From a bacterium (GTDB lineage Bacteria; Pseudomonadota; Alphaproteobacteria; Caulobacterales; Hyphomonadaceae): a stretch of DNA of 64,000 bases. The position numbers and the translations under genes are program-made. The notes under the pieces are model-generated. The model was not told the DNA's origin, did no database searches, and worked only from the letters and a program-made list of their open reading frames with translations. Shown here piece by piece: positions 6,859 to 38,240 of this stretch. The stretch spans positions 117,206 through 181,205 of the forward strand of contig WGML01000009.1 of the NCBI GenBank assembly GCA_016125045.1. The letters are read 5' to 3'. Each line of letters starts with the position of its first letter. Position 1 is the stretch's first letter.

Positions 6859-7953
6859 TCAGCGGCCCTCTTCCGCCGTCACCGAGGCCACGACACCGCC
6901 ACGTTTCTCCTGCATCCGCGCGCCAGCGAGAATGCCCTCGAAAGAGTAATTCCCTTCGTGGCAGGCGTACTCATAGAGCGGCTGATCGGTCTTGTTGAAC
7001 GCCATCTCTCCCCGCCATGTCTGGGTGTACAGGGTCGGATCCTCGACGATGAATTCATAGACGATCTGGTCGTCCGACCAGCGTGTGAATCTCTCGGTCA
7101 CCTTGCCCTCGGACGAAATATAGCCCCGCTGCATGGGGTGCATGTTTCGCGTCTCGATGACCAGCGTGTCGCCCTCATACCAGCCGATGGAGTCTCCGAG
7201 CCACGGCTTGATAACGTCCGGCCGGACCCGCTCGCGGGTGATGGGAATGATCCGCGCATCGTGCACCATTTCAACCAAAATCATAACGTGATCAGGGGCT
7301 TGCACGATCTGATAGGTGTTGTTGTAGAGCACGTTCTGCATCACCGGACCGCCGGTGTTGCCAAACCCGATCAGGCAGCGCTCGCCGATCGGGCGGGTTT
7401 CCGGCCCATCGAAACTCCCGTAATTCGTCTGGATCGGTCCCGGCCCCTGCACCGTCACGCCATCCGCGCCGGCGCCGCCGGTCGGGCGGGCGGGTTGGGC
7501 GGCGGGGCGACGCGGCTGGGGCCGGTTCTTGTACGGAATGCGTCCATCCGCGGGCTCGACAATCCACGATGAGCGAAGCTCGCCGCGCACCTTCGCAACC
7601 TTGGTTCCCGGGTCGACCCAGAACGCGTTATAGCCGCCGCCGGACAGGAGGTCCGTGCCGTCGAGCAGCGTCGTGTCTTTCGGATCCGCCGGCTTTGCGT
7701 CCTCGCGTGTCCGGTTGTTGTAATAGTCCGCGCCTTCAAGCTTCGCCGCCTGCTCGGGGGTGAGGACGAGCGTCTCGGCGAGGGGATCGCGCTGCATGTC
7801 CGTGATCGAGGAATTGCTCCAGAACCCCTGCAGGTCCGGGCGTCCGTCGGGCATGCGGGCCGGCGTGTAGCCCGGCGCCGTGGTCTGCGCGGCGGCGGAG
7901 GCGGCCAGTGCGCAACTGAAGGTCAGGGCTGAAACGATCGACTTGATGAACAT
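6859..7953 (-). CDS. Secreted protein of unknown function, paralogue 1 of 4 (ERCLIGFG / YEYACHEGNY family)
   Basis: The ATG at 7953 follows an AGAGGGA Shine-Dalgarno site. Signal peptide MFIKSIVSALTFSCALAASAAAQ. Long conserved blocks are shared with 12060, 13291 and 14642. Confidence 0.85.
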   Translation of the reverse strand: MFIKSIVSALTFSCALAASAAAQTTAPGYTPARMPDGRPDLQGFWSNSSITDMQRDPLAETLVLTPEQAAKLEGADYYNNRTREDAKPADPKDTTLLDGTDLLSGGGYNAFWVDPGTKVAKVRGELRSSWIVEPADGRIPYKNRPQPRRPAAQPARPTGGAGADGVTVQGPGPIQTNYGSFDGPETRPIGERCLIGFGNTGGPVMQNVLYNNTYQIVQAPDHVMILVEMVHDARIIPITRERVRPDVIKPWLGDSIGWYEGDTLVIETRNMHPMQRGYISSEGKVTERFTRWSDDQIVYEFIVEDPTLYTQTWRGEMAFNKTDQPLYEYACHEGNYSFEGILAGARMQEKRGGVVASVTAEEGR

Positions 7954-8272
7954 GGCGTGCTCCCTCTTTGGTCGCGGACAGGCGCGCGTCTTGTCCGGCG
8001 CGCCTCGCCGCATGGAATCTGCGCCAACATGCGGTAAAACGTCTCTGCGATGCAATCGGACAAACCGGACCGGCGGAGCTTGCGTACGTTTTTTGCATTC
8101 CGAAGCCGTATATTCGCCCTCCGGATCGCTTGCCGGCCGTCCATGCGACAGCGTGCATGACCGGGGGGTGAGGAGTGGGCGTCAGGAACGGTTTCGGCGC
8201 GGGTTTGAGTGATGTTTGGGCGATGGCTTCATCACGGGGCCGCCGCCGGGGACCAGACGAAGGGACGACAAG

Positions 8273-9967
8273 ATGGACGGATCGATGGCGGCTGGCCCGG
8301 TGCTCTCTGATCTGCGCGGCCTGATGCGCGAAGGCGCGACGGCGGCGGAGACCTATTTCCTCGCGGTCCGCAAGGCCGTCGCCGGCAAGGTCGCGCCCGC
8401 CGGCAAGGTCGACCGCACGCTCATCGACGTCGAACAACGCGCCACCCACGGCCTCGCCTGGGTGCTGACCTATGTCGAAACGCTGAAAGAGGTCGCCAAC
8501 TGGGCGGACCGTCTCGCCGCAGCCGGCAAGTGGGGCGAAACGGAACAGCTGCTCTCCCAGATCCTCTTCGGCGAATACCTGAACCAGCTCGCCGGCGGCC
8601 TGCCGATGACCCAGGTCGAGATCGTGCGCCCGCTCGACATGACGGCGGAAGCATCGATCACCGCGCCGTTGCTCGCGCCCGCCGTGACGACCCTCATGAC
8701 TGGCGGAAACACCCCCGCGGCCCGGCTGCGGGCGGCGGAACTGATCCGCGAAGCGCAGGGCCGGGCGACGGTCGAGAACACCGGGCTCGACGAAACCTAT
8801 GAAATGATCCGCGACCAGTTCCGCCGCTTCGGCGAGGAGCGCGTCGTTCCTTACGCTCATGACTGGCATCTGAAGGATGAACTCATCCCCGACGCCGTCG
8901 TCAACGAAATGGGCGAGATGGGTGTCTTCGGCCTCACCATCCCTGAAGCCTATGGCGGGCTCGGCATGGGCAAGACCGCGATGTGCGTCGTCTCGGAGGA
9001 GCTGTCGCGCGCCTATATCGGCGTCGGCTCGCTCGGCACGCGCTCCGAGATCGCCGCCGAACTCGTCCTCGTCGGCGGAACCGAGGCGCAGAAGCAGGCA
9101 TGGCTGCCCGGCATCGCTTCCGGAGCCATCCTGCCCACCGCCGTTTTCACCGAACCCAACACCGGATCGGACCTCGGTTCGCTCCGCACCCGCGCCGAGC
9201 GCGCGCCGGACGGCGGCTGGACCATCACCGGGAACAAGACCTGGATCACCCACGCGGCCCGCACCGACATGATGACCGTGCTCGCCCGCTCGGTCGCCGG
9301 CACCGACAATTTCTCCGGCCTGTCGATGTTCCTGTGCAGGAAACCGCGTGGGACGGATGAGGCTCCCTTCCCCGCCGAGGGAATGACCGGCGGCGAGATC
9401 GAGGTGCTCGGCTATCGCGGCATGAAGGAATACGAGATTGCCTTCGACGGCTTCCGCGCGCCGGCCGACGCCCTGCTCGGCGAGGTCGAGGGACAGGGCT
9501 TCCGCCACCTGATGGCGACGTTCGAGGGCGCCCGCATCCAGACCGCCGCACGCGCCATCGGGGTCGCGCAGAACGCGCTTGAACTCGGGCTCAAATATGC
9601 GCTGGAGCGCAGCCAGTTCGGCCGCCCGATCTTTGAATTCCCGCGCGTGTCCGACAAGCTCGTGATGATGGCCGCCGAACTCATCGGCGTGCGCCAGCTC
9701 ACCTATTACTCCGCGCGCCAGAAGGATGAGGGCAAGCGCTGCGATCTTGAGGCCGGCCTCGCCAAGATGCTCGCGGCGCGCGTCGCCTGGGGCGCGGCGG
9801 ACAATGCGCTGCAGATCCACGGCGGCAATGGCTTCGCGCTCGAATATCCGATCAGCCGGGTGCTGTGCGATGCGCGCATCCTCAACATCTTCGAGGGCGC
9901 GGGCGAGGTGCAGGCCATGGTCATCGCCCGCCGCACGCTGGACGAATTCCTCGCCGGGAAGAACTGA
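8273..9967 (+). CDS. Acyl-CoA dehydrogenase with an N-terminal extension
   Basis: The ACAD core motifs are all present: TEPNTGSDLGSLRTRAE, WITHA, and IHGGNGFALEYPISRVLCDARILNIFEGAGEVQ. Alternative start at 8216. Confidence 0.9.
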   Translation: MDGSMAAGPVLSDLRGLMREGATAAETYFLAVRKAVAGKVAPAGKVDRTLIDVEQRATHGLAWVLTYVETLKEVANWADRLAAAGKWGETEQLLSQILFGEYLNQLAGGLPMTQVEIVRPLDMTAEASITAPLLAPAVTTLMTGGNTPAARLRAAELIREAQGRATVENTGLDETYEMIRDQFRRFGEERVVPYAHDWHLKDELIPDAVVNEMGEMGVFGLTIPEAYGGLGMGKTAMCVVSEELSRAYIGVGSLGTRSEIAAELVLVGGTEAQKQAWLPGIASGAILPTAVFTEPNTGSDLGSLRTRAERAPDGGWTITGNKTWITHAARTDMMTVLARSVAGTDNFSGLSMFLCRKPRGTDEAPFPAEGMTGGEIEVLGYRGMKEYEIAFDGFRAPADALLGEVEGQGFRHLMATFEGARIQTAARAIGVAQNALELGLKYALERSQFGRPIFEFPRVSDKLVMMAAELIGVRQLTYYSARQKDEGKRCDLEAGLAKMLAARVAWGAADNALQIHGGNGFALEYPISRVLCDARILNIFEGAGEVQAMVIARRTLDEFLAGKN

Positions 9968-29976: not shown

Positions 29977-29987
29977 CCCGCGCCACG

Positions 29988-30350
29988 CTCTTGTCCTCCA
30001 CCCATCGTCAGATGGGGGGAGGACAAGAGCGCATGCGAGGTCGGAGGGGGGGCCGCCCCACCCCGCCGCCACATGTCATCCCGGAAGCGGCGTGAGCCGC
30101 TATCCGGGACCCAGCCTCAAGAACCGCAAAGCGCCTTCATCCCCCCCTCCGGTCCTGCGGACCACCTCCCCCCGTTCCACGGGTGGAGGACAAGACCCCG
30201 CCGCCTCCGTCCCCCCCCTTCACGGGGGGTGAGACGCGGCGCCGAAGGCGCAAAACGCGAAGAGCGTTTCGAGCGGCGAACGCCCGCAGCGACAGCGGAG
30301 GGCCGGGTGCCGAGCGAAAGCGAGGCCGGAGGGGGCGCCCCCAAAACCCG
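29988..30350. repeat. Intergenic mosaic repeat cluster A
   Basis: The cluster contains three elements. First, the hairpin gctcttgtcctcc...ggaggacaagagc (29988-30030, 13-bp perfect stem) directly after the dehydrogenase stop. Second, family-1 element TGTCATCCCGG...CCGGGACCCAG at 30074-30114. Third, the family-2 element at 30145-30209. The region is convergent, with gene ends at 29976 and 30358. Confidence 0.9.
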
Positions 30351-30357
30351 CCCGCGT

Positions 30358-31545
30358 CTACTCCGCGCCGATCTTCAAAAGCGGCGTATTGGCCGCCCGC
30401 AGCGCCGGGAAGAAGCCGCCGATCAGTCCGAGCACCAGCGCGAGGACCACACCGGAAACCACCTGCGCCGGACCGATCGCAAAGTCGAACACGACCTGCG
30501 TGAAGCCGCCGCCAAGGGTGGAAGCAGTAATGCCGTTGAAGATGAGATAGGCCGCGATCACACCGAGCAGTCCGCCCGCAAGCGACAGCAGCAGCGACTC
30601 CGTCAGCGCGCCGACAAAGGCCGGGAAGCCGCCGAAACCGATCGCCCGCAGCGTGGCCAGCTCCTTGGTGCGCGCCTCCACCGCCGCATACATCGTATTG
30701 AGCGCGCCCGCGAGCGCGCCGAGCCCGAGCGTGATCGCTAGCGCCCAGCCGAAATACACGATGGCTTCCAGCGATCGCGCCTCGGACGCGAAATGCTCCT
30801 TCTCGGTCTTCACCTCGATGCGCAGCCGCGGATCGGCCGCCACGAAGGCCTTGATCGCCTCCATCTGGCCGGGGTCCGTCAGGCGTGCGCGAACCGCGGC
30901 GACGGTCGGTCCGCGATTGAACAGCGTCTGCACGACGGGCAGATCCGCCCAGAGCTCGCTGTCGAACACCGTGCCCGGCACCTCGAACACGCCGACGACC
31001 TTCCACTTGTCGGTGCCGAACTGCATCTCGGCGCCAAGGTCAAAGCCCTGGAACTCCCGCACCACGCCCGCGCCGACGATCATCTCGTTGGTGCCGGGGT
31101 CGTACATCCGCCCCTCCGTGATCCGGAAGCCGGTGCGCATCCCCGGCGCGTTGGCCGTGACGCCGCGCAGCGACACGTTGGCCTCGCCCCCTCCCGCCCG
31201 GCGCACCGCGCCCACCGCGACATAACTCTCCGGCGACACGATCGGCCGGCCGGAGGCGTCGCGCGCGATGCCGGGGGCTTCCTCGAGGATCCGGACCGCT
31301 TCGCCCGGCATGGTGGAGTTGAGCTCCGAGCCCGAGGTTCCCGTGCCCAGGAACATGGCCACATCCTCCGACCCGGTGCCGGCGACCGTCTTGGCGAATC
31401 CGTTGCCCATCGCGAGGAAGGCGAGCAGCGTTGCAACCACCAGCGCGACCGAAACGATGGTCGTGAGCGAGGCCCAGAAGCGGCTCGGCAGCCCCGACAC
31501 CGTCATCGCGACGACCGCGCCAATCTGCTGAAACAGTGCCGACAT
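30358..31545 (-). CDS. ABC transporter permease (FtsX/MacB-type)
   Basis: An N-terminal TM segment, a large periplasmic domain, then a C-terminal 3-TM FtsX-like region (...ATLRAIGFGGFPAF...). Confidence 0.85.
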   Translation of the reverse strand: MSALFQQIGAVVAMTVSGLPSRFWASLTTIVSVALVVATLLAFLAMGNGFAKTVAGTGSEDVAMFLGTGTSGSELNSTMPGEAVRILEEAPGIARDASGRPIVSPESYVAVGAVRRAGGGEANVSLRGVTANAPGMRTGFRITEGRMYDPGTNEMIVGAGVVREFQGFDLGAEMQFGTDKWKVVGVFEVPGTVFDSELWADLPVVQTLFNRGPTVAAVRARLTDPGQMEAIKAFVAADPRLRIEVKTEKEHFASEARSLEAIVYFGWALAITLGLGALAGALNTMYAAVEARTKELATLRAIGFGGFPAFVGALTESLLLSLAGGLLGVIAAYLIFNGITASTLGGGFTQVVFDFAIGPAQVVSGVVLALVLGLIGGFFPALRAANTPLLKIGAE

Positions 31546-31549
31546 CGCG

Positions 31550-32713
31550 TCAGATCCTTCTGAAGGCGGTGATCACGTTCACCCGCATCGCATTCCAGGC
31601 CGGGATCGCGCCGGTGATCAGCCCGAGCGCCACCATGAGGCCAACCGCCGTCGCAACGATCTCCGGCGTGATCTTCAGCGAGCCGAAGAACACAAGGAAC
31701 TGGCTGCCCACGGTCTGGCCGAGTGTGACGATCCCGAACGCCGCGGCGAGCCCGATCAGCCCGCCGATAAGGGCGAGCATCACCGTTTCTCCGATCACGA
31801 TCCGCGCAATGCGGGGCGAGGTGAAGCCGAGCGTCTTCATCACCGCGATTTCGCCCGTGCGCTCCCGGATCGCGCCCGCCATCGCATTGCCGACGATCAG
31901 GAGGATGGTGACGAACGCCGCGCCCGTCACGCCGAGGATGATCAGGCCGAGATTGCCCTGCTGGTCGATGAAGGCCGCGTTGAACGCCTCCTCGGTCACC
32001 GTCTCGGTCTCGGCGCGCGAGTTCTGGAACAGCGCATCCACCTCGCGGATCACCTGATCGTTGAGGTCCGCGCTCGCGGTCTTGATATGGATGTTTCCGA
32101 TCGTGTCCTGCGCGAAGGCGCGCGCCTCGTCGAAATACTCATATGGGATGTACACCGAATTGGTCGGCGTATCGCCATCGCCCTCGAAGATCGCGCGCAC
32201 CACCACCGGCCAGGTGTTGCCGCCGTCCTGCCGCCGCCAGATGTTCGACGAGACCGGAATTTGCTGGCCCAGCGTCCAGCCATACTGGTCGGCGATCTGC
32301 CGGCCCACCAGGATGCTGTCGCGCCCGTCGACGAAGGCCTGCCGCTGCGCGGGATCGATGTTCAGCTCGCTGAAGATGCGGGTGTAGCTGTCGGGCTCGA
32401 CCGCGAAGGCGAGCAGGAAATTGCGCTCTTCCTGGAAGTATCCGCCGAACCACATCGAATAGCTGACGTCCGTCACGCCCTCGACCTGCGCCACGCGGTT
32501 CACATAGGCGATGGGAAGGCTTTCGGTGAAGTTGATCCGGTTAGAGGATACGAGCCGGTTCTGCGAGGACGGGCCGGTCGCATTTTCGAGCGACGACTGG
32601 AAGGCCGCGAGCACCGCATAGATCAGGAACGCGATGAACACCGCAAACAGCAGCAGGATCGTGCGCAGCTTCTTGCGGGCGAGGCCCGCCAGCATCAGTC
32701 CGAAGTCGGTCAT
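31550..32713 (-). CDS. ABC transporter permease (FtsX/MacB-type), second copy
   Basis: Same architecture as the first permease (...IAVMKTLGFTSPRIARIV...). ATGA-type overlap with the ATPase gene. Confidence 0.85.
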   Translation of the reverse strand: MTDFGLMLAGLARKKLRTILLLFAVFIAFLIYAVLAAFQSSLENATGPSSQNRLVSSNRINFTESLPIAYVNRVAQVEGVTDVSYSMWFGGYFQEERNFLLAFAVEPDSYTRIFSELNIDPAQRQAFVDGRDSILVGRQIADQYGWTLGQQIPVSSNIWRRQDGGNTWPVVVRAIFEGDGDTPTNSVYIPYEYFDEARAFAQDTIGNIHIKTASADLNDQVIREVDALFQNSRAETETVTEEAFNAAFIDQQGNLGLIILGVTGAAFVTILLIVGNAMAGAIRERTGEIAVMKTLGFTSPRIARIVIGETVMLALIGGLIGLAAAFGIVTLGQTVGSQFLVFFGSLKITPEIVATAVGLMVALGLITGAIPAWNAMRVNVITAFRRI

Positions 32714-33399
32714 GTCAGCCGCTCCTCGAACTCACCCTTGTCGAGATGCAGTTCGCGCTTGGCGTATTTCGCCGCCGCGGGGTCGTGCGTCACCATCACG
32801 ATCGTCTTGCCGAGATCGCGGTTGAGCAATTGCAGCATTTCAAGGATCTCGGTCGCGGTCGTGCGGTCGAGGTCCCCCGTCGGTTCGTCGGCGAGCAGGA
32901 GTTTCGGGTCGGCGACAATCGCCCGCGCGATCGCCACGCGCTGTTGCTGACCGCCGGAAAGCTCCTTCGGACGGTGGCCCGAACGGTCGCCGAGACCGAC
33001 GATCTCAAGCGCGGTCTTCACCCGCTCCTTGCGGTCGCGCGGCGACAGTTTTGTCAGCAGCAGCGGCAGCTCGACATTGCGGGTCGCCGTCATGGTCGGC
33101 ATCAGATTGTAGAACTGGAAGATGAAGCCGACATTCGCCGCGCGCCATGCCGACAACTGGCTTTCGCTCAGCTTCTCGATGGGTGACCCGGCGAAATTGA
33201 TCGATCCGCCCGTGGGCCGGTCGAGGCCGCCAAGCATGTTGAGAAGCGTCGTCTTGCCGGAGCCCGACGGCCCCATCACCGCAACGAAATCGCCGGCCGG
33301 AATCGTCAGGTTGAGATCGTCGAAGATCGACAGCGTCTCGTCCCCGCGCTTGTAGCGTTTCTGCACGCCCCTCAGTTCGATCAGCGCTTCGCCGGTCAT
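32710..33399 (-). CDS. ABC transporter ATP-binding protein (MacB/LolD-like)
   Basis: Walker A GPSGSGKTT, signature LSGGQQQRVAIARA, Walker B LLLADEPTGDLD. Confidence 0.93.
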   Translation of the reverse strand: MTGEALIELRGVQKRYKRGDETLSIFDDLNLTIPAGDFVAVMGPSGSGKTTLLNMLGGLDRPTGGSINFAGSPIEKLSESQLSAWRAANVGFIFQFYNLMPTMTATRNVELPLLLTKLSPRDRKERVKTALEIVGLGDRSGHRPKELSGGQQQRVAIARAIVADPKLLLADEPTGDLDRTTATEILEMLQLLNRDLGKTIVMVTHDPAAAKYAKRELHLDKGEFEERLT

Positions 33400-33424
33400 G
33401 ATGCCTCGCCCTTGCCTGCCCTGA

Positions 33425-33476
33425 AGACCCCGCAAGGGTCTAACCGAAGCCCGCCCGTCTGCACAATGGCGGGCGG
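33425..33476 (-). terminator. Two hairpins downstream of the TIR gene
   Basis: ccgcccg-N12-cgggcgg (33451-33476) and agaccc-cgcaa-gggtct (33425-33441). They lie between the TIR stop (33509) and the ATPase start (33399). Confidence 0.45.
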
Positions 33477-33508: not shown

Positions 33509-34639
33509 TCAGCGGCCGAGCGCTGCCACCAGCCGCGCGCGCTGCCCGGCGGTCGCGAGCGCGCCGATCTTCACCTTCGCGTCCCACACGCTTGCAAGCC
33601 CCCAGAGCTGCGCCAGCCGCTCGGCGTCCTCATAGGCGTAGCCCGCGTCGACGAAATCGCACTGCGTCCCGGATTGCCGTGCGAAGCGAAGGATTCCGGG
33701 GATGTTCGCGGCGAGGCCGCTCATGATCTTGCGCCCGACGAGCGCCTTCGTCTCGCCGATGTCCATGTTCCAGTAGGCGCCGATCAGTTTCGCGTCGCAA
33801 TAGGCGTAGCCGGACGCAAAGAACGTCCCATACTCGTCTCCCGGCACGATCACGGGTTGCTGGGCCGGCGCCGCCGGAAGGTCTGGCGCGGCGTCCGCGT
33901 CCGCGATCTCCACTGCCTCCCCCGTCGCTTCGCCCGTCGCCTCGACCGCACCGGCGTCGGCGGCGTCCCCGGCGTCGGCGACCTCGACCGGTGCGCCGTC
34001 GGCGCCGGGATCAAGGCCCGCATCGTCGCCGCCGCCCCCGAACATGCCGGACTGCCAGGCGAAATATCCCCCGCCGCCAAGCAGCGCGATCGCCGCGACG
34101 GCGCCGACGAGCGGGATCACCGGGGACGACTTCGCGGGTTCGGGCCTGCGCTGATAGGTCGACCTCGGCGCGGAGGTGGACGCCGCCGCCGGCCCGGTTC
34201 CGATCATGGCGCTGAGCGCCGGGAGGGGCTTTGGCGGCCCGCCGGGCGCGCGTCCCACGAAATGCTGCACCGCCCCCAGGACATTCACCCATTCGGCGTC
34301 ATGGGTGTCGCCCGTCCAGCCGATCAGGCGCGCCGCCTCAAGCTGACGGAAGCCGTAGGGGATCGGCACATCGTCGATCAGCACCGGCAGCAGCACGTTG
34401 CGCTGCTTGCCTTCATCGGCCTCATCGAGAACCCATTGCGCCTGCGACGACTTCTCCGACCAGAGCACCATCACGCATTTGGCGGTGGCGAGCGTTTCGC
34501 CGATCACTTCGCGATAGCTGCGGCCGGGGGGAATCCGGTGGTCCCACCACACCTCATAGCCTGCATCCGCGAGCGCCCGCGCGATGGGTTCGACCCGGTG
34601 AACGTCCTCTTTCTTGTAGCTGATGAAGATATCGGTCAT
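33509..34639 (-). CDS. TIR domain / single TM / C-terminal extracytoplasmic domain protein
   Basis: The N-terminus looks like a TIR_2 domain: DIFISYKKEDVHRVEPIARALADAGYEVWWDHRIPPGRSYREVIGETLATAKCVMVLWSEKSSQAQWVLDEADEG...LLPVLID. It is followed by a TM helix (VIPLVGAVAAIALLGGGGYFAW), an acidic D/A/G linker, and a ~110-aa domain with an internal GYAY.DA...W...AK..IG duplication. Confidence 0.85.
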   Translation of the reverse strand: MTDIFISYKKEDVHRVEPIARALADAGYEVWWDHRIPPGRSYREVIGETLATAKCVMVLWSEKSSQAQWVLDEADEGKQRNVLLPVLIDDVPIPYGFRQLEAARLIGWTGDTHDAEWVNVLGAVQHFVGRAPGGPPKPLPALSAMIGTGPAAASTSAPRSTYQRRPEPAKSSPVIPLVGAVAAIALLGGGGYFAWQSGMFGGGGDDAGLDPGADGAPVEVADAGDAADAGAVEATGEATGEAVEIADADAAPDLPAAPAQQPVIVPGDEYGTFFASGYAYCDAKLIGAYWNMDIGETKALVGRKIMSGLAANIPGILRFARQSGTQCDFVDAGYAYEDAERLAQLWGLASVWDAKVKIGALATAGQRARLVAALGR

Positions 34640-34715
34640 GCGCCGCCCCTTGCCTCCGCCGCCCGGAGAGCCAAGACCCTATCCGCCATGACCGACCTTC
34701 ACAACCTGGGCGCCG

Positions 34716-34898
34716 CCCTCCGGTCCTTCGGACCACCTCCCCCCGTTCCACGGGTGGAGGACAAGACCCCGCCGCCTCCGATCTACACCTGTATCCCCTG
34801 GGTCCCGGGTCTCGCTGACGCTCGCCCGGGATGACACCCTTCCATGCGCGACCAGATTGTCATCCCGGAATTTGCGTCAGCAAATGTCCGGGACCCAG
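34716..34898. repeat. Intergenic mosaic repeat cluster B
   Basis: The family-2 element at 34716-34780 matches cluster A at 64/65 positions. Family-1 elements lie at 34798-34836 (inverted orientation) and 34858-34898. Confidence 0.9.
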
Positions 34899-34900
34899 CC

Positions 34901-35884
34901 TCACCCGCCGCAGCACTCAACCAGCATCGCCTCGAACACGTCCGCCGCCTCGACGATCTCACCCGCCGTCATCCCGGCCGGCAGGATGCGCACCTCGAAC
35001 GTGTCCTTCGCCGGATCGCCAATCGCCAGGTTCGCGAGGTTGAAGTCGCAATACTTGCCCACCCCCGCCTGCCTCAGCGCCCGCGCCGCCTCCGGCCACG
35101 CCAGCCGGCGAAACCCCTCGTCGCGGGCGAGCGCCGTGACGGGGTCGGGCCACGGCCCGAGGCGGACGCAATGCGGATTCGTCGCGAAGCGGCGTTTCAG
35201 CGCCTCCGCCCGCTCGCCGAACAGATCGATCATCCGCGCGACGACCGGCGCCGACTTCAGCCGGGCGGCGTCGAAATGCACATGCACCGCCCCTTCGACC
35301 GGGGCGAAACACTCCTCCGCCGCGGCATCTGCCAGCAGGGCCGCGAGCACCCTCTCATGATCCCGCTCGATCGGCGCGGTCACGATCTCGCACGGCCGCT
35401 CGCGTTCGCCCGGCAACGGGGCGGCGATGGCGATGCTCGCCCCCCGGTCGTCGGAGACTTTGCGCAGGCCGCTCTCATGCACCTGCACCGCCGTGCCGAA
35501 CGCGCGCGCCAGCGGCTCCAGCACCGTCTCCAGCGGATCGTCCGCGCTGCACAGCCGCGCCGCGAGGCGCATCAGCCGGCCGTCATCCCCGACGATGCGA
35601 TACCAGCCGTGCACCGGCGATGCGGCCTTGTCGAAATCCCGCTGCAGGGTGAGGTCATCGACGAACGCCGCCACCGGGCGCCCCGCAGCGTCGCTCACCT
35701 CAAAGCCGAGGGTGAGGTTCTCGAACACGGGCCGGCCGGCGACCTCGCTCGGTTCCGACTGCTGATGGAACACCCGCCGCACCGCGCCTCCCGTTCGGGC
35801 GGCGGTCCGGGCCGCAAGATCCGCCCGCGTCCGGCCGGGCCGGCAGGCCAGCTCGATTTCAACCCCGATCGTCCAGTCCGGCAT
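34901..35884 (-). CDS. Amidoligase (Amidoligase_2 / glutamine-synthetase-like carboxylate-amine ligase fold)
   Basis: The ATG at 35884 gives MPDWTIGVEIELAC..., then CEIVTAPI, AVHVHFD and FEVRILPAG. These match the family's G.E.E / E.V(S/T)P / HVH / (I/F)E.R motifs as I remember them. Confidence 0.75.
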   Translation of the reverse strand: MPDWTIGVEIELACRPGRTRADLAARTAARTGGAVRRVFHQQSEPSEVAGRPVFENLTLGFEVSDAAGRPVAAFVDDLTLQRDFDKAASPVHGWYRIVGDDGRLMRLAARLCSADDPLETVLEPLARAFGTAVQVHESGLRKVSDDRGASIAIAAPLPGERERPCEIVTAPIERDHERVLAALLADAAAEECFAPVEGAVHVHFDAARLKSAPVVARMIDLFGERAEALKRRFATNPHCVRLGPWPDPVTALARDEGFRRLAWPEAARALRQAGVGKYCDFNLANLAIGDPAKDTFEVRILPAGMTAGEIVEAADVFEAMLVECCGG

Positions 35885-35924: not shown

Positions 35925-36944
35925 CTAGCCCTCGGTGCGGTCGAACGTGACCTTCGCGGCCATCTGCGGCAGCACGCGCGGATCGCGTTCCTTGAACCCC
36001 ACGCGGACCTGGATGGTCGCCCGGTCGCGGTTCGCGGTCGGAATGATCGCAATCACCTCGGCGGGGATGTTCCAGTCCGGATAGGCGTCGAGCACGATGG
36101 TTGCGTTCTGTCCCGGGCGCACGTCCGAAATCTGGCCCTCATTCACGTCCACCTCGACCTCGAGGCTCGCCATGTCGACCAGCGTCGCAACGCCCGTCCG
36201 GGTAAACTCGCCGCCGCCGCCGGCCGGCGAGAGGATTTCCCCCGCCTGCGCGTTCTTGGCGATGATGACCCCGGCGAACGGCGCCCGAACCTTGTGGCGG
36301 TCGACGAAGTCGGCCTGCCGCTCAACCGCGAATTCCGCCACCCGCACATCGGCCCTGGCCGCGTCGTAGCGCGCCTTCAGCGACTCGATGGTCGCCACCG
36401 CCTGGTCCAGCGCCGCACGCGACACCGCCTCGCTCGCCATCAGCCGCTCGGCGCGCTGGCGCTGGTTTTCCGCTTCCACCATCTGCGCTTCCAGAGCCTG
36501 CACATTCGCCTTCGCCGACTGAACCTGCGCCTGCCGGAGCTGCAGGTCATAGCGCGCCGGCTCGTCATCCAGCTGGGCGAGGAGCTGGCCCTTCTCGACG
36601 ATGGCGCCCTCCTCGAACATCACGTCCGTCAGCCTGCCGGTGATGTCGACCGACACCGTCGCCGCCCGGCGCGCCACCACATAGCCCGACGCGACAAGCC
36701 CGCCGCGCGGCCGTGGCGCGGCGGCGACCCCCGCGACCGTCGATCCCGCGGCGCCCGCCGCAGGGTCCGCGGCGGCGACCGCCGGAGCCGGGGCGGGCGC
36801 CGGACGCATGAACATCATCCACCCCGCCATCGCGAGCATGGCGACCACCGCAACGCCGGCGATCAGCGGCCAGGGGCCTGCTCCGCCGCCGGACGGCGCC
36901 GACCGATCGATCGACAACGACCGCAGCTTTTCGGCAGTATTCAT
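35925..36944 (-). CDS. Periplasmic adaptor subunit (HlyD/MacA-type membrane fusion protein)
   Basis: An N-terminal TM anchor, a coiled-coil hairpin (LQLRQAQVQSAKANVQALEAQMVEAENQ...) and a beta-barrel C-terminus. Confidence 0.88.
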   Translation of the reverse strand: MNTAEKLRSLSIDRSAPSGGGAGPWPLIAGVAVVAMLAMAGWMMFMRPAPAPAPAVAAADPAAGAAGSTVAGVAAAPRPRGGLVASGYVVARRAATVSVDITGRLTDVMFEEGAIVEKGQLLAQLDDEPARYDLQLRQAQVQSAKANVQALEAQMVEAENQRQRAERLMASEAVSRAALDQAVATIESLKARYDAARADVRVAEFAVERQADFVDRHKVRAPFAGVIIAKNAQAGEILSPAGGGGEFTRTGVATLVDMASLEVEVDVNEGQISDVRPGQNATIVLDAYPDWNIPAEVIAIIPTANRDRATIQVRVGFKERDPRVLPQMAAKVTFDRTEG

Positions 36945-37108: not shown

Positions 37109-37879
37109 CTACGCGGATGAGCCCGCCGCTGGATCAATCCCGGCCGGCAGCCAGCTCGGCTTCGCGGTCTTGCCCCCGAGCCAGTCGAAATATTCGGCAT
37201 AGGAGCCATAGGCGAGCCGCGGCTCGCGCCTTTCCGCCCGGGCGAGCTTCTGTTCATCGATGGCCTCCTCCGTCCAGTCGGTCGGCGGCGGCATTTCATC
37301 TCTCTCGAACCACCAGACATTGATGTGCCGCGTCGTCCATCTCGGTCCGGACGGACCCGGGTCTTGCGAGCCGATCGGCCAGACATAGCCGAGCAGCGTC
37401 TCGAGACGCCGTCGCAGCTCGTCGAGCCAGTTGATCCCGTCGTCTTCGTGTTGCGGCGGAGCCATTGCCTTGCCTCCGCCCTGCAACCTGTCCCCGACCC
37501 GAAGCATCCGCTCGGCGAGGCGCAGGGCGGTCTCGGCGCTCCGCATCTCGCCTTGCTCGGTCAGCGCCACGGCGATCGCCGACAGCTGCTCGGCCTGCGT
37601 CCGCATCGCCTTTCCGTCCGCGACATCGGTGAGGTTCAGCGGCGCCGTGTTGCGCCGCCCGGCAAGCGCGGGGTTCAGGCCCGCTGCGATCGCGGCGGCT
37701 GTCTCTTGATCGAGGTCCTTGCGCCGCCATCCACCCGCCTGCGCCCATTGCGCCAGCGTCGAGCCCGGCACGCCGAGCCGCGCCGCGACCTCCGCGCGCG
37801 CCGCGCCCGCCCGCACCAGCCGCTCGGCCTCGGCCCGAAGCTCCCGCCGCGCTTCCTCAGATCGGTAGCCAAATCCCAT
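37109..37879 (-). CDS. Hypothetical protein with an N-terminal HTH-like segment
   Basis: The ATG at 37879 gives MGFGYRSEEARRELRAEAERLVRAGAARAEVAARLGVPGSTLAQWAQAGGWRRK... I do not recognise the Trp-rich C-terminal domain. Confidence 0.55.
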   Translation of the reverse strand: MGFGYRSEEARRELRAEAERLVRAGAARAEVAARLGVPGSTLAQWAQAGGWRRKDLDQETAAAIAAGLNPALAGRRNTAPLNLTDVADGKAMRTQAEQLSAIAVALTEQGEMRSAETALRLAERMLRVGDRLQGGGKAMAPPQHEDDGINWLDELRRRLETLLGYVWPIGSQDPGPSGPRWTTRHINVWWFERDEMPPPTDWTEEAIDEQKLARAERREPRLAYGSYAEYFDWLGGKTAKPSWLPAGIDPAAGSSA

Positions 37880-37935
37880 GGCCGGAAGTCTAAGGCGCCC
37901 CGGCCGCGAGGGGGACAAGTCATCGCGCCCCCTCC

Positions 37936-38240
37936 TGTCATCCCGGAACCGCCGAAGGCGGTATCCGGGACCCAGCGTCACCTGCCCCCAAAACGCCTGC
38001 ACGCCCCCGATCCAGCACCCCCTGGGTCCCGGGTCTCGCTGGCGCTCGCCCGGGATGACACCCTTCCATGCACGATCAGATTGTCATCCCGGAAGCGGCG
38101 TGAGCCGCTATCCGGGACCCAGCCTCAAGAACCGCAATGCGCCACCCCCCCCTCCGGTCCTTCGGACCACCTCCCCCGTGAACGGGGGAGGATAAGAACC
38201 AACCCCGCCCCAGCTGTCCTCCCCCGTTCACGGGCCAGGT
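37936..38240. repeat. Intergenic mosaic repeat cluster C
   Basis: Family-1 elements lie at 37936-37975, 38022-38060 (inverted) and 38082-38122. The family-2 element is at 38150-38211, with a partial copy at about 38214-38236. 38019-38094 matches cluster B at 73/76 positions. The first 56 nt from 38082 are identical to those from 30074. Confidence 0.9.

Follow-up and report, generated by a model that had tools for sequence, protein, structure and literature searches.

Here we report a TIR protein of 376 amino acids encoded in a 64,000-nucleotide stretch of a Hyphomonadaceae genome (assembly GCA_016125045.1, contig WGML01000009.1, positions 117,206 to 181,205), hereafter the window. Sequence comparison and structure prediction support a layout in which an N-terminal TIR domain would lie in the cytoplasm, and a single transmembrane (TM) helix, oriented N-in/C-out, would carry a duplicated, disulfide-bearing module outside; the gene is paired with one for an amidoligase. 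We hold the predicted architecture and origin of the protein with high confidence. Bacterial TIR proteins are generally seen as soluble anti-phage sensors or effectors, or as secreted virulence factors. The layout had been proposed in a first-pass annotation of the window, which was made from the letters alone and is followed up here. Coordinates are window positions unless a locus is named (Table 1). The relatives come from metagenome-assembled genomes (MAGs) or metagenomes, except for TIR-less amidoligase-module pairs of cultured Brevundimonas and a lone module gene of Pontixanthobacter, and all trees are simple neighbour-joining trees.

Results

A protein identical to that of the window (P0001) was retrieved, as were 21 full-length orthologues with 49-56% identity to it, and in the alignment all 21 start at the MTDIFISY with which the window protein begins. 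Residues 4-108 match the Pfam family TIR_2 (PF13676) at 71.5 bits (cutoff 28; E = 1.1e-19), so the TIR_2 assignment of the first-pass annotation holds in a profile search. It also holds at the level of the predicted fold: an AlphaFold2 (AF2) model built on 22 orthologues shows alternating beta/alpha elements in residues 1-135 at a predicted local distance difference test score (pLDDT) of ~90, and Foldseek gave this part a probability of 1.00 for SPARTA TIR, AbTir, TLR1/2/10, MyD88 and SARM1 (SPARTA TIR-APAZ, 8qlo, E = 1e-4; AbTir, 7uxu, root-mean-square deviation 1.7 Å). Sequence matches in the PDB were 3h16, 7uwg and 8g83. In sequence and profile alignments W69-x3-E73 (AQWVLDEAD) falls on KKDWTNYELD of AbTir and KKEWPQKELD of PdTIR, at positions that we take to be those of AbTir W204 and E208, the Trp and catalytic Glu of NAD-cleaving TIRs; a Glu had been noted at this position, and it is E73. 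This residue is invariant across the 22 orthologues, the W-x3-E motif is also invariant in the paralogues described below, and the TIR domains of the orthologues share a mean pairwise identity of 82%. Matches in PADLOC and NCBIfam are limited to the TIR portion and all belong to defence families (PDC-S66, SAVED-TIR, retron-TIR, Thoeris III); the SAVED-TIR match is confined to residues 3-75. Judged by motif and modelled fold, the domain is an ordinary TIR_2 member of the catalytic type.

Residues 172-196 are the sole strongly hydrophobic stretch of the protein (57% mean identity among orthologues, with the GGGY.AW motif kept). The segment before them is poorly conserved (26% mean identity; pLDDT <50 from residue 143), and the 20 residues directly preceding the helix, which include QRRPEPAK, have a net charge of +3. 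Behind the helix follows a linker of 66 residues, mostly Asp, Ala and Gly, which has 26% identity and variable length among orthologues and a pLDDT <50. Basic stretch, single helix and acidic linker are thus as first described. The window protein has neither a Sec nor a Tat signal peptide; TIR domain, TM helix and linker stand in its place. The predicted N-in/C-out, type-II topology is strongly supported by the homology of the C-terminal module to hundreds of proteins with Sec or Tat signal peptides and by its paired Cys residues, and by this homology the helix would be a signal-anchor in place of a signal peptide.

The part outside the membrane, named here the YCDAK domain, is internally duplicated, as the first-pass annotation had stated. 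Residues 273-317 align with residues 329-374 at a Smith-Waterman score of 56, whereas shuffled sequences score 21.7 +/- 4.4 and none of 2000 shuffles scored as high, and the same A/B unit is seen throughout the family. Its A-half has the consensus S.Y.YCDAK.L...WG....EAK..IG.K and its B-half C.....GYSY.DAE.LA..WG.....AK. Across 115 sequences Y18, C19, D20, K36, C65, W84 and K93 of the domain are invariant. A disulfide had been suggested for the two Cys residues: C281 and C327 are invariant in the 22 orthologues and likewise in the 115 module proteins, and in 466 domain instances both Cys are present in 351 while single-Cys cases are essentially absent. An export signal was found in 197 of 222 module proteins with all Cys, and the few signal-less proteins are Cys-less too. 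Co-variation and export signals together point to a structural disulfide in an exported domain, and no other evidence available speaks as strongly as the co-variation does for a periplasmic location of residues 263-376.

A word-indexed search with the C-terminal 122 amino acids alone gave no match; an exhaustive HMMER search with the ectodomain recovered 595 representative clusters at E <= 1e-3, and 314 of them pass E <= 1e-10. These homologues are mostly signal-peptide proteins and few are fused to other domains; most are 250-450 amino acids long and contain the unit 2-7 times over. A further 176 proteins came from a profile search; the majority have a single unit and ~145 amino acids, all are annotated as 'hypothetical' and none has a Pfam domain. 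An N-terminal hydrophobic, signal-like segment is present in 114 of the 149 best module homologues, many of the others being fragments. Members linked to an amidoligase carry textbook Sec (...AQA, AxA) or Tat (RRxxL) signals, in most cases Sec.

AF2 with the 115-sequence alignment predicts a compact eight-helix bundle (pLDDT 94.3; predicted template-modelling score 0.83), and a Foldseek search with this model stayed at noise level (best E = 2.2 in the PDB and 2.6 in BFVD; template-modelling score ~0.26). The ectodomain has no family in Pfam, NCBIfam or PADLOC and no sequence match in the PDB. Because sequence and fold searches of Pfam, PDB and BFVD found nothing, the YCDAK domain is uncharacterised by sequence and by fold, and the outside domain remains, as first noted, unrecognised. 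DUF1266 was considered and rejected: it gave one sub-threshold match (P0085), which did not recur among the 115 members. The ectodomains of the TIR-YCDAK orthologues share 54% mean pairwise identity.

Some members of the family depart from the exported form. Five (P0098, P0141, P0158, P0163, P0211) have neither signal peptide nor Cys and may be cytoplasmic versions. Actinobacterial members (P0201, P0221, P0222, P0228 and L066 3030-3917) are Cys-less, with a short cytoplasmic N-terminus, a TM anchor and an adjacent amidoligase homologue. Fusions are rare; for instance, P0168 has a peptidoglycan-binding LysM domain at its N-terminus, and P0130 has WXXGXW repeats at its C-terminus.

About 70 proteins came up in a search with the full-length protein, most of them encoded in MAGs of Hyphomonadaceae, Caulobacteraceae and other Alphaproteobacteria. 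They have in common the TIR domain, a juxtamembrane motif of the PGGPPKP type and a TM helix that carries GGGY.AW.SG; their C-termini are unrelated. One TIR-TM cassette, 72-87% identical, is thus joined to at least four unrelated ectodomains other than YCDAK. Besides YCDAK these include CYWLS, a Cys-rich duplicated FACYWLSNDA...CFAQDSCDGG..GGCYKWA module (P0024, P0026, P0033, P0045, P0063); FPDWG, a domain with ...AGMRI.L....VYLYFPDWGE (P0027, P0064, P0067 and others); GYVWR, with GYVWREA..VCVT repeats (P0030, P0034, P0035, P0037); Sel1, which alone of the non-YCDAK types is known to Pfam; and others. Certain cassette proteins combine two ectodomain types. One genome (GCA_041398345.1) encodes both a YCDAK type (P0004) and a CYWLS type (P0026) with TIR domains that are 80% identical, and orthologue TIRs across genomes, at 75-87% identity, are no closer. 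On the TIR tree the ectodomain types are interleaved and poorly resolved, the TIR domain being too conserved to tell one fusion from several, a question that the amidoligase tree below decides. The family is rare, with 23 loci among ~185,000 species genomes. These comparisons strongly support the view that the window protein belongs to a small modular family of putative transmembrane TIR proteins. One further protein, P0023 (260 amino acids, on a 521-kb contig), is the same as P0006 (342 amino acids) through the TM helix and then continues in an unrelated basic tail; it looks like a frameshifted copy of a TIR-YCDAK gene, either pseudogenised or mis-assembled.

The gene beside the TIR gene, called an amidoligase in the first-pass annotation, does match Amidoligase_2 (PF12224), at 39.5 bits (cutoff 22). 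Its product has 327 amino acids if the ATG in line with the starts of the orthologues is taken, and the metal- and ATP-binding motifs GxExE (G7/E9/E11), HxHFD (H201/H203/D205) and FExR (E297/R299) are invariant in the amidoligase alignment (A2). It lacks a C-terminal tail of 22-36 residues that is present in orthologues. A sequence search of the PDB found no solved relative, and no homologues were found in viral, phage and plasmid collections. Plasmids gave only distant matches, confined to the TIR part.

Adjacency of the two genes was correctly seen, but they are more than neighbours. The amidoligase gene lies directly upstream on the same strand in seven of seven distinct TIR-YCDAK loci with otherwise unrelated surroundings, and none lies within 5 kb in ~17 loci whose TIR-TM cassette bears another ectodomain. 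A reciprocal metagenome scan with the amidoligase alignment gave 45 loci (44-66% identity), none with a TIR gene; 33 of them have an adjacent same-strand gene for a YCDAK module, and most of the others end at a contig edge. The sole amidoligase lineage clearly without a module gene is that of L043 and L039, and Pontixanthobacter has a module gene alone. In the L043/L039 lineage (L043 3986-7485, L039 211-3282) the amidoligase gene is followed by convergent L,D-transpeptidase-like genes (YkuD-type, ...SHGCIRV). In Brevundimonas subvibrioides and at L079 the amidoligase and module genes overlap, with the order either way, which suggests translational coupling. Fusions of amidoligase and module were absent among the retrieved proteins, and no third gene is conserved around the pair across loci; some large neighbour clusters that had come up as a third gene were shadow open reading frames (ORFs) of the GC-rich amidoligase gene. 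We found no relevant description of the amidoligase-TIR pair or of PF12224 function in the literature.

The TIR-linked enzymes fall together as a single clade on the amidoligase tree, inside the module-linked ones, which indicates that the ancestral system was a cytoplasmic amidoligase with an exported YCDAK protein. The data support the amidoligase as the habitual partner of the YCDAK module rather than of the TIR domain, in a pairing that is far older than the TIR fusion. Replacement of the signal peptide by a TIR domain, TM helix and acidic stalk, once and in one lineage, is strongly supported by the tree and the alignments, by which the TIR-YCDAK fusion is derived and arose a single time, among Hyphomonadaceae-like MAGs.

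On the minus strand the window has, in order, an HlyD-type membrane-fusion protein gene, the Amidoligase_2 gene, the TIR gene, an ABC ATPase gene and two MacB/FtsX permease genes. The placement inside an exporter locus given by the first-pass annotation is therefore right as far as the genes are concerned (Pfam), but a functional link is not borne out: exporter genes are absent at the six other TIR-YCDAK loci (L001-L004, L010, L011) and at the 45 amidoligase loci. At L001 the pair separates ybaB from recR in the dnaX-ybaB-recR cluster; at L002 and L003 it adjoins DnaJ/MerR-type genes, at L004 genes for PBP1C and an alpha-2-macroglobulin, and at L010 and L011 it is in yet other surroundings. 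Because the pair is kept while the surroundings differ in these six loci, the two-gene cassette is the conserved unit and the MacAB-type exporter context is, by this comparison, incidental, an accident of insertion. The L001 pair (6866-9083 of that locus, GCA_041398345.1) splits a widely conserved cluster, which suggests that the amidoligase-TIR cassette moves as a unit, although no mobility genes lie near it. At L010 (599-3301) a distant TIR protein is encoded just upstream of the amidoligase, by an ORF of 901 amino acids with a TIR domain, 2-3 TM helices and a ~640-residue domain without a Pfam match; it is a second membrane-anchored TIR protein in the same MAG lineage.

The TIR gene has its own Shine-Dalgarno site, as first described (GGAGG, 13 nt 5' of the ATG). 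Hairpins at its 3' end are present too, but RNA folding there is no stronger than in shuffled sequence (z = -0.3) and they do not amount to a canonical terminator; promoter and terminator scans scored neither a sigma-70 promoter nor a canonical terminator. The gap between the two genes holds a mosaic palindromic repeat resembling repetitive extragenic palindromic (REP) sequences and miniature inverted-repeat transposable elements (MITEs). Its components fall into families D1-D5, with further copies at 29986-30210 and 37910-38240, so that at least three copies of the GC-rich palindrome mosaic lie within 8.5 kb; the core motif ATCCGGGACCCAGC occurs seven times (1.09 expected), and the repeat RNA folds with z = -3.9. 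Its overlap with the amidoligase stop codon probably explains the missing C-terminal tail. Between the HlyD gene and a uvrB-like sequence an ORF of 297 amino acids (37109-38002, minus strand) has a weak sub-threshold match to HTH_23 and is flanked by REP-like repeats.

Table 1. Coordinates of the TIR gene, its predicted protein segments, its partner gene and their surroundings in the window.
Feature	Position	Strand	Basis or remark
Complete gene, TIR-TM-ectodomain protein, 376 amino acids	33509..34639	minus	stop codon 33509-33511
Cytoplasmic TIR domain (predicted), residues 1-135	34235..34639	minus	Pfam TIR_2, AF2, Foldseek
Candidate catalytic pair W69 and E73	34433-34435 and 34421-34423	minus	alignment to AbTir, PdTIR
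Juxtamembrane segment, residues 136-171, variable, low confidence	34127..34234	minus	ends in basic QRRPEPAK
Single TM helix (predicted), residues 172-196 (SPVIPLVGAVAAIALLGGGGYFAWQ)	34052..34126	minus	top Kyte-Doolittle windows
Acidic disordered linker (predicted periplasmic), residues 197-262	33854..34051	minus	net charge -15
Eight-helix YCDAK domain (predicted periplasmic), residues 263-376	33512..33853	minus	AF2, 595 homologous clusters
Invariant C281 and C327	33797-33799 and 33659-33661	minus	ectodomain Cys pair
A-half of duplication, residues 273-317 (FFASGYAYCDAKLIGAYWNMDIGETKALVGRK...)	33689..33823	minus	self-alignment
B-half of duplication, residues 329-374 (FVDAGYAYEDAERLAQLWGLASVWDAKVKIG...)	33518..33655	minus	self-alignment
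Partner gene, glutamine synthetase (GS)-fold Amidoligase_2 subfamily enzyme, 327 amino acids	34901..35884	minus	Pfam PF12224
REP/MITE-like mosaic palindromic repeat	34713..34931	.	fills amidoligase-TIR gap, overlaps amidoligase stop codon
HlyD/MacA-type membrane-fusion protein gene, context only	35925..36944	minus	Pfam HlyD_D23, HlyD_3
ABC ATPase gene, context only	32710-33435	minus	Pfam
Two MacB/FtsX-type permease genes, context only	31550-32713 and 30358-31545	minus	Pfam

Discussion

Taken as a whole, with architecture, origin and an NADase-receptor mechanism combined, the interpretation of the window protein as a type-II transmembrane TIR receptor is in our judgement an even call; the mechanism by itself is tentative, and we would stop short of calling it probable. 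In this mechanism the ectodomain would bind a periplasmic ligand that depends on the amidoligase and could be the product of the enzyme (a small amide), an amidated component of the envelope or the modified ectodomain itself. Binding would alter the clustering of the receptor in the inner membrane, and through clustering the TIR domains in the cytoplasm would reach the oligomeric state needed for NAD+ cleavage, with a nucleotide signal or NAD+ depletion as the output. TIR enzymes are active only when self-associated, as in SARM1, AbTir, plant TIRs and SPARTA, and a single-pass protein transmits solely a change in oligomeric state or clustering, which is why control of TIR assembly by a ligand is proposed as the most economical mechanism; the persistence of the amidoligase in turn suggests that the cue depends on it. 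Hints of a cell-wall role (the LysM fusion of P0168 and the L,D-transpeptidase and PBP1C neighbours) are single observations and too weak to carry a model.

Several points weigh against this mechanism. The ligand is entirely hypothetical. The amidoligase would be cytoplasmic and the module periplasmic, so the functional link between them is indirect and unexplained, and no ThsA-like SLOG, Macro or SIR2 effector gene is conserved near the pair across loci. A conserved Glu is no proof of NADase activity, since certain TIR domains are pure scaffolds. The predicted topology is based on the positive-inside rule and on homology, and the confidence of the AF2 model is low in the TM region. Conservation of the TIR domain at 82% and neighbourhoods of a housekeeping type are atypical of fast-evolving defence genes.

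The protein could instead be an abortive-infection sensor and effector, in which the periplasmic domain responds to envelope damage or to an adsorbing or injecting phage, and the TIR domain then brings about death or arrest of the cell by depleting NAD+. We regard this as improbable, although a catalytic-type TIR domain akin to those of the defence proteins AbTir and SPARTA, the matches of the TIR portion to PADLOC and NCBIfam defence families, the patchy and rare distribution (23 loci in ~185,000 species genomes), the insertion of a two-gene cassette in unrelated operons and the paralogues with swapped ectodomains, which recall diversifying sensors, would all suit it. The loci lie outside defence islands with no integrase or mobile-element genes near them, and the amidoligase has no plasmid or phage homologues. 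The sequences are under strong purifying selection (TIR 82%, ectodomain 54% identity) with no sign of diversification, and the ancestral amidoligase-module pair is widespread without a TIR domain, which points to a physiological rather than immune role of the sensing half.

A role of the TIR-TM part as a non-enzymatic anchor or oligomerisation scaffold, which would cluster the module or recruit the amidoligase with no NAD chemistry, is similarly unlikely in our view. It would accord with a module-amidoligase pairing that is ancient and usually TIR-less, with the plain N-terminal TM helix that anchors the module in the actinobacterial proteins (P0201, P0221, P0222, P0228, L066), and with a TIR surface that is extremely conserved all over among the paralogues, as would fit a protein-protein interface; a role as interaction scaffolds has been described for many TIR domains (PMC7075850). 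A mere anchor would not need the W-x3-E motif, however, which is invariant in all paralogues, and the cassette is also found on ectodomains without an amidoligase partner, so that its role is independent of the enzyme.

Less probable still is a covalent modification of the module protein by the amidoligase before export, in the manner of PafA/Pup or RimK and at an invariant Lys or the ...ALG[R/Y] end, with the modified form being the functional one, for example attached to the cell wall or recognising it. Protein-tag ligases such as PafA are found among the GS-fold amidoligases, and the catalytic motifs of the amidoligase are intact; the overlapping genes suggest translational coupling, the invariant residues of the domain include K36 and K93, and many of the proteins terminate just past ALG[R/Y]. 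The Tat signals of some partners would allow pre-folded and possibly pre-modified export, but most partners carry Sec signals and hence would be exported unfolded, and the ALG motif is internal in multi-unit proteins. No fusion or other direct evidence of interaction was found, and the cell-wall hints that would suit this idea (LysM, L,D-transpeptidase, PBP1C) are single observations. That the TIR protein and the amidoligase are accessories of a MacAB/HlyD-type tripartite exporter, as one might suppose from the window, where the pair has the HlyD gene on one side and the ATPase and permease genes on the other, all on one strand with short gaps, is very improbable and effectively refuted, since synteny is not conserved (none of the six other TIR-YCDAK loci or 45 amidoligase loci has a conserved exporter, and at L001 the pair interrupts dnaX-ybaB-recR instead).

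Among known TIR proteins, AbTir of Acinetobacter baumannii, PdTIR, BtpA/TcpB and the TIR-APAZ protein of SPARTA share the fold and the TIR_2 match with the window protein, whose W-x3-E aligns with that of AbTir. AbTir, PdTIR, BtpA and SPARTA are soluble (secreted effectors, coiled-coil fusions, Argonaute partners), whereas the window protein is predicted to be a membrane protein with an N-terminal TIR domain and a periplasmic domain. Thoeris ThsB and the TM-containing TIR systems of E. coli (PMC11350192) are comparable in having a TIR sensor or producer in one- or two-gene systems, some with TM segments. Thoeris has an adjacent ThsA effector, in which SIR2, Macro or TM segments are combined with SLOG, whereas the window locus has no ThsA-like neighbour and an amidoligase as partner, and the ThsB_TIR model scores 16.8 bits on the window protein, below its cutoff of 21.2. 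TIR effectors of CBASS, Pycsar and type III CRISPR go with a cyclase or CD-NTase gene in their operon and have a nucleotide-sensing domain, such as SAVED, fused to the TIR domain; the window locus has no cyclase and the protein no SAVED domain. Because these defining partner genes and fused sensor domains are absent, the system is not Thoeris, CBASS, Pycsar or SPARTA. In anti-sigma factors and PknB-type kinases, too, variable outside domains are joined through a TM helix to a cytoplasmic module that is conserved; in the window protein that module is a TIR domain instead.

The amidoligase resembles the GS-fold carboxylate-amine ligases of PF12224, with PafA/Dop and YbdK/GCS2 as characterised relatives of the fold, in its above-threshold score and in GxExE, HxHFD and FExR. 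Members of PF12224 are often phage- or plasmid-borne, whereas the window subfamily has no such copies, is coupled to exported YCDAK genes and has no solved sequence relative.

With Toll-like and IL-1 receptors the window protein shares a predicted single-pass layout, with an outside ligand domain and a cytoplasmic TIR domain, and within its family one TIR domain is joined to varied ectodomains. Those receptors, however, are type I with leucine-rich repeat (LRR) or immunoglobulin (Ig) ectodomains, whereas the window protein is predicted to be type II (TIR-TM-ectodomain) with a helical bundle and a bacterial catalytic-type TIR domain; no LRR or Ig match was found in the ectodomain (Pfam, Foldseek). 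The likeness would therefore be an analogy of layout, not homology. Such a layout was rightly called unusual by the first-pass annotation: according to a recent survey, bacterial TIR systems seem to lack TLR-like features, although TM segments occur in some of those of E. coli (PMC11350192), and we found no receptor-like bacterial TIR protein described in the literature.

Two findings have a wider bearing. One is a helical domain, modelled with confidence and probably disulfide-bonded, that is without a known relative in structure and occurs in hundreds of clusters in Proteobacteria and Actinobacteria. The other is its conserved gene pairing, often with overlap, by which a putative cytoplasmic ATP-dependent ligase is tied to a protein that is exported; no current model explains this link. 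It is conceivable, if doubtful, that the family is a prokaryotic counterpart of the Toll-like receptors, in which a highly conserved and catalytically competent TIR-TM part is wired to interchangeable periplasmic sensors and signals across the inner membrane, with ligand-induced oligomerisation, NAD+-derived chemistry, a cue supplied via the amidoligase and a new, widespread fold as the sensor. If so, outside-in TIR signalling would not be an animal invention, and the pair would offer a simple two-gene system for studying how an ectodomain controls the assembly of TIR domains.

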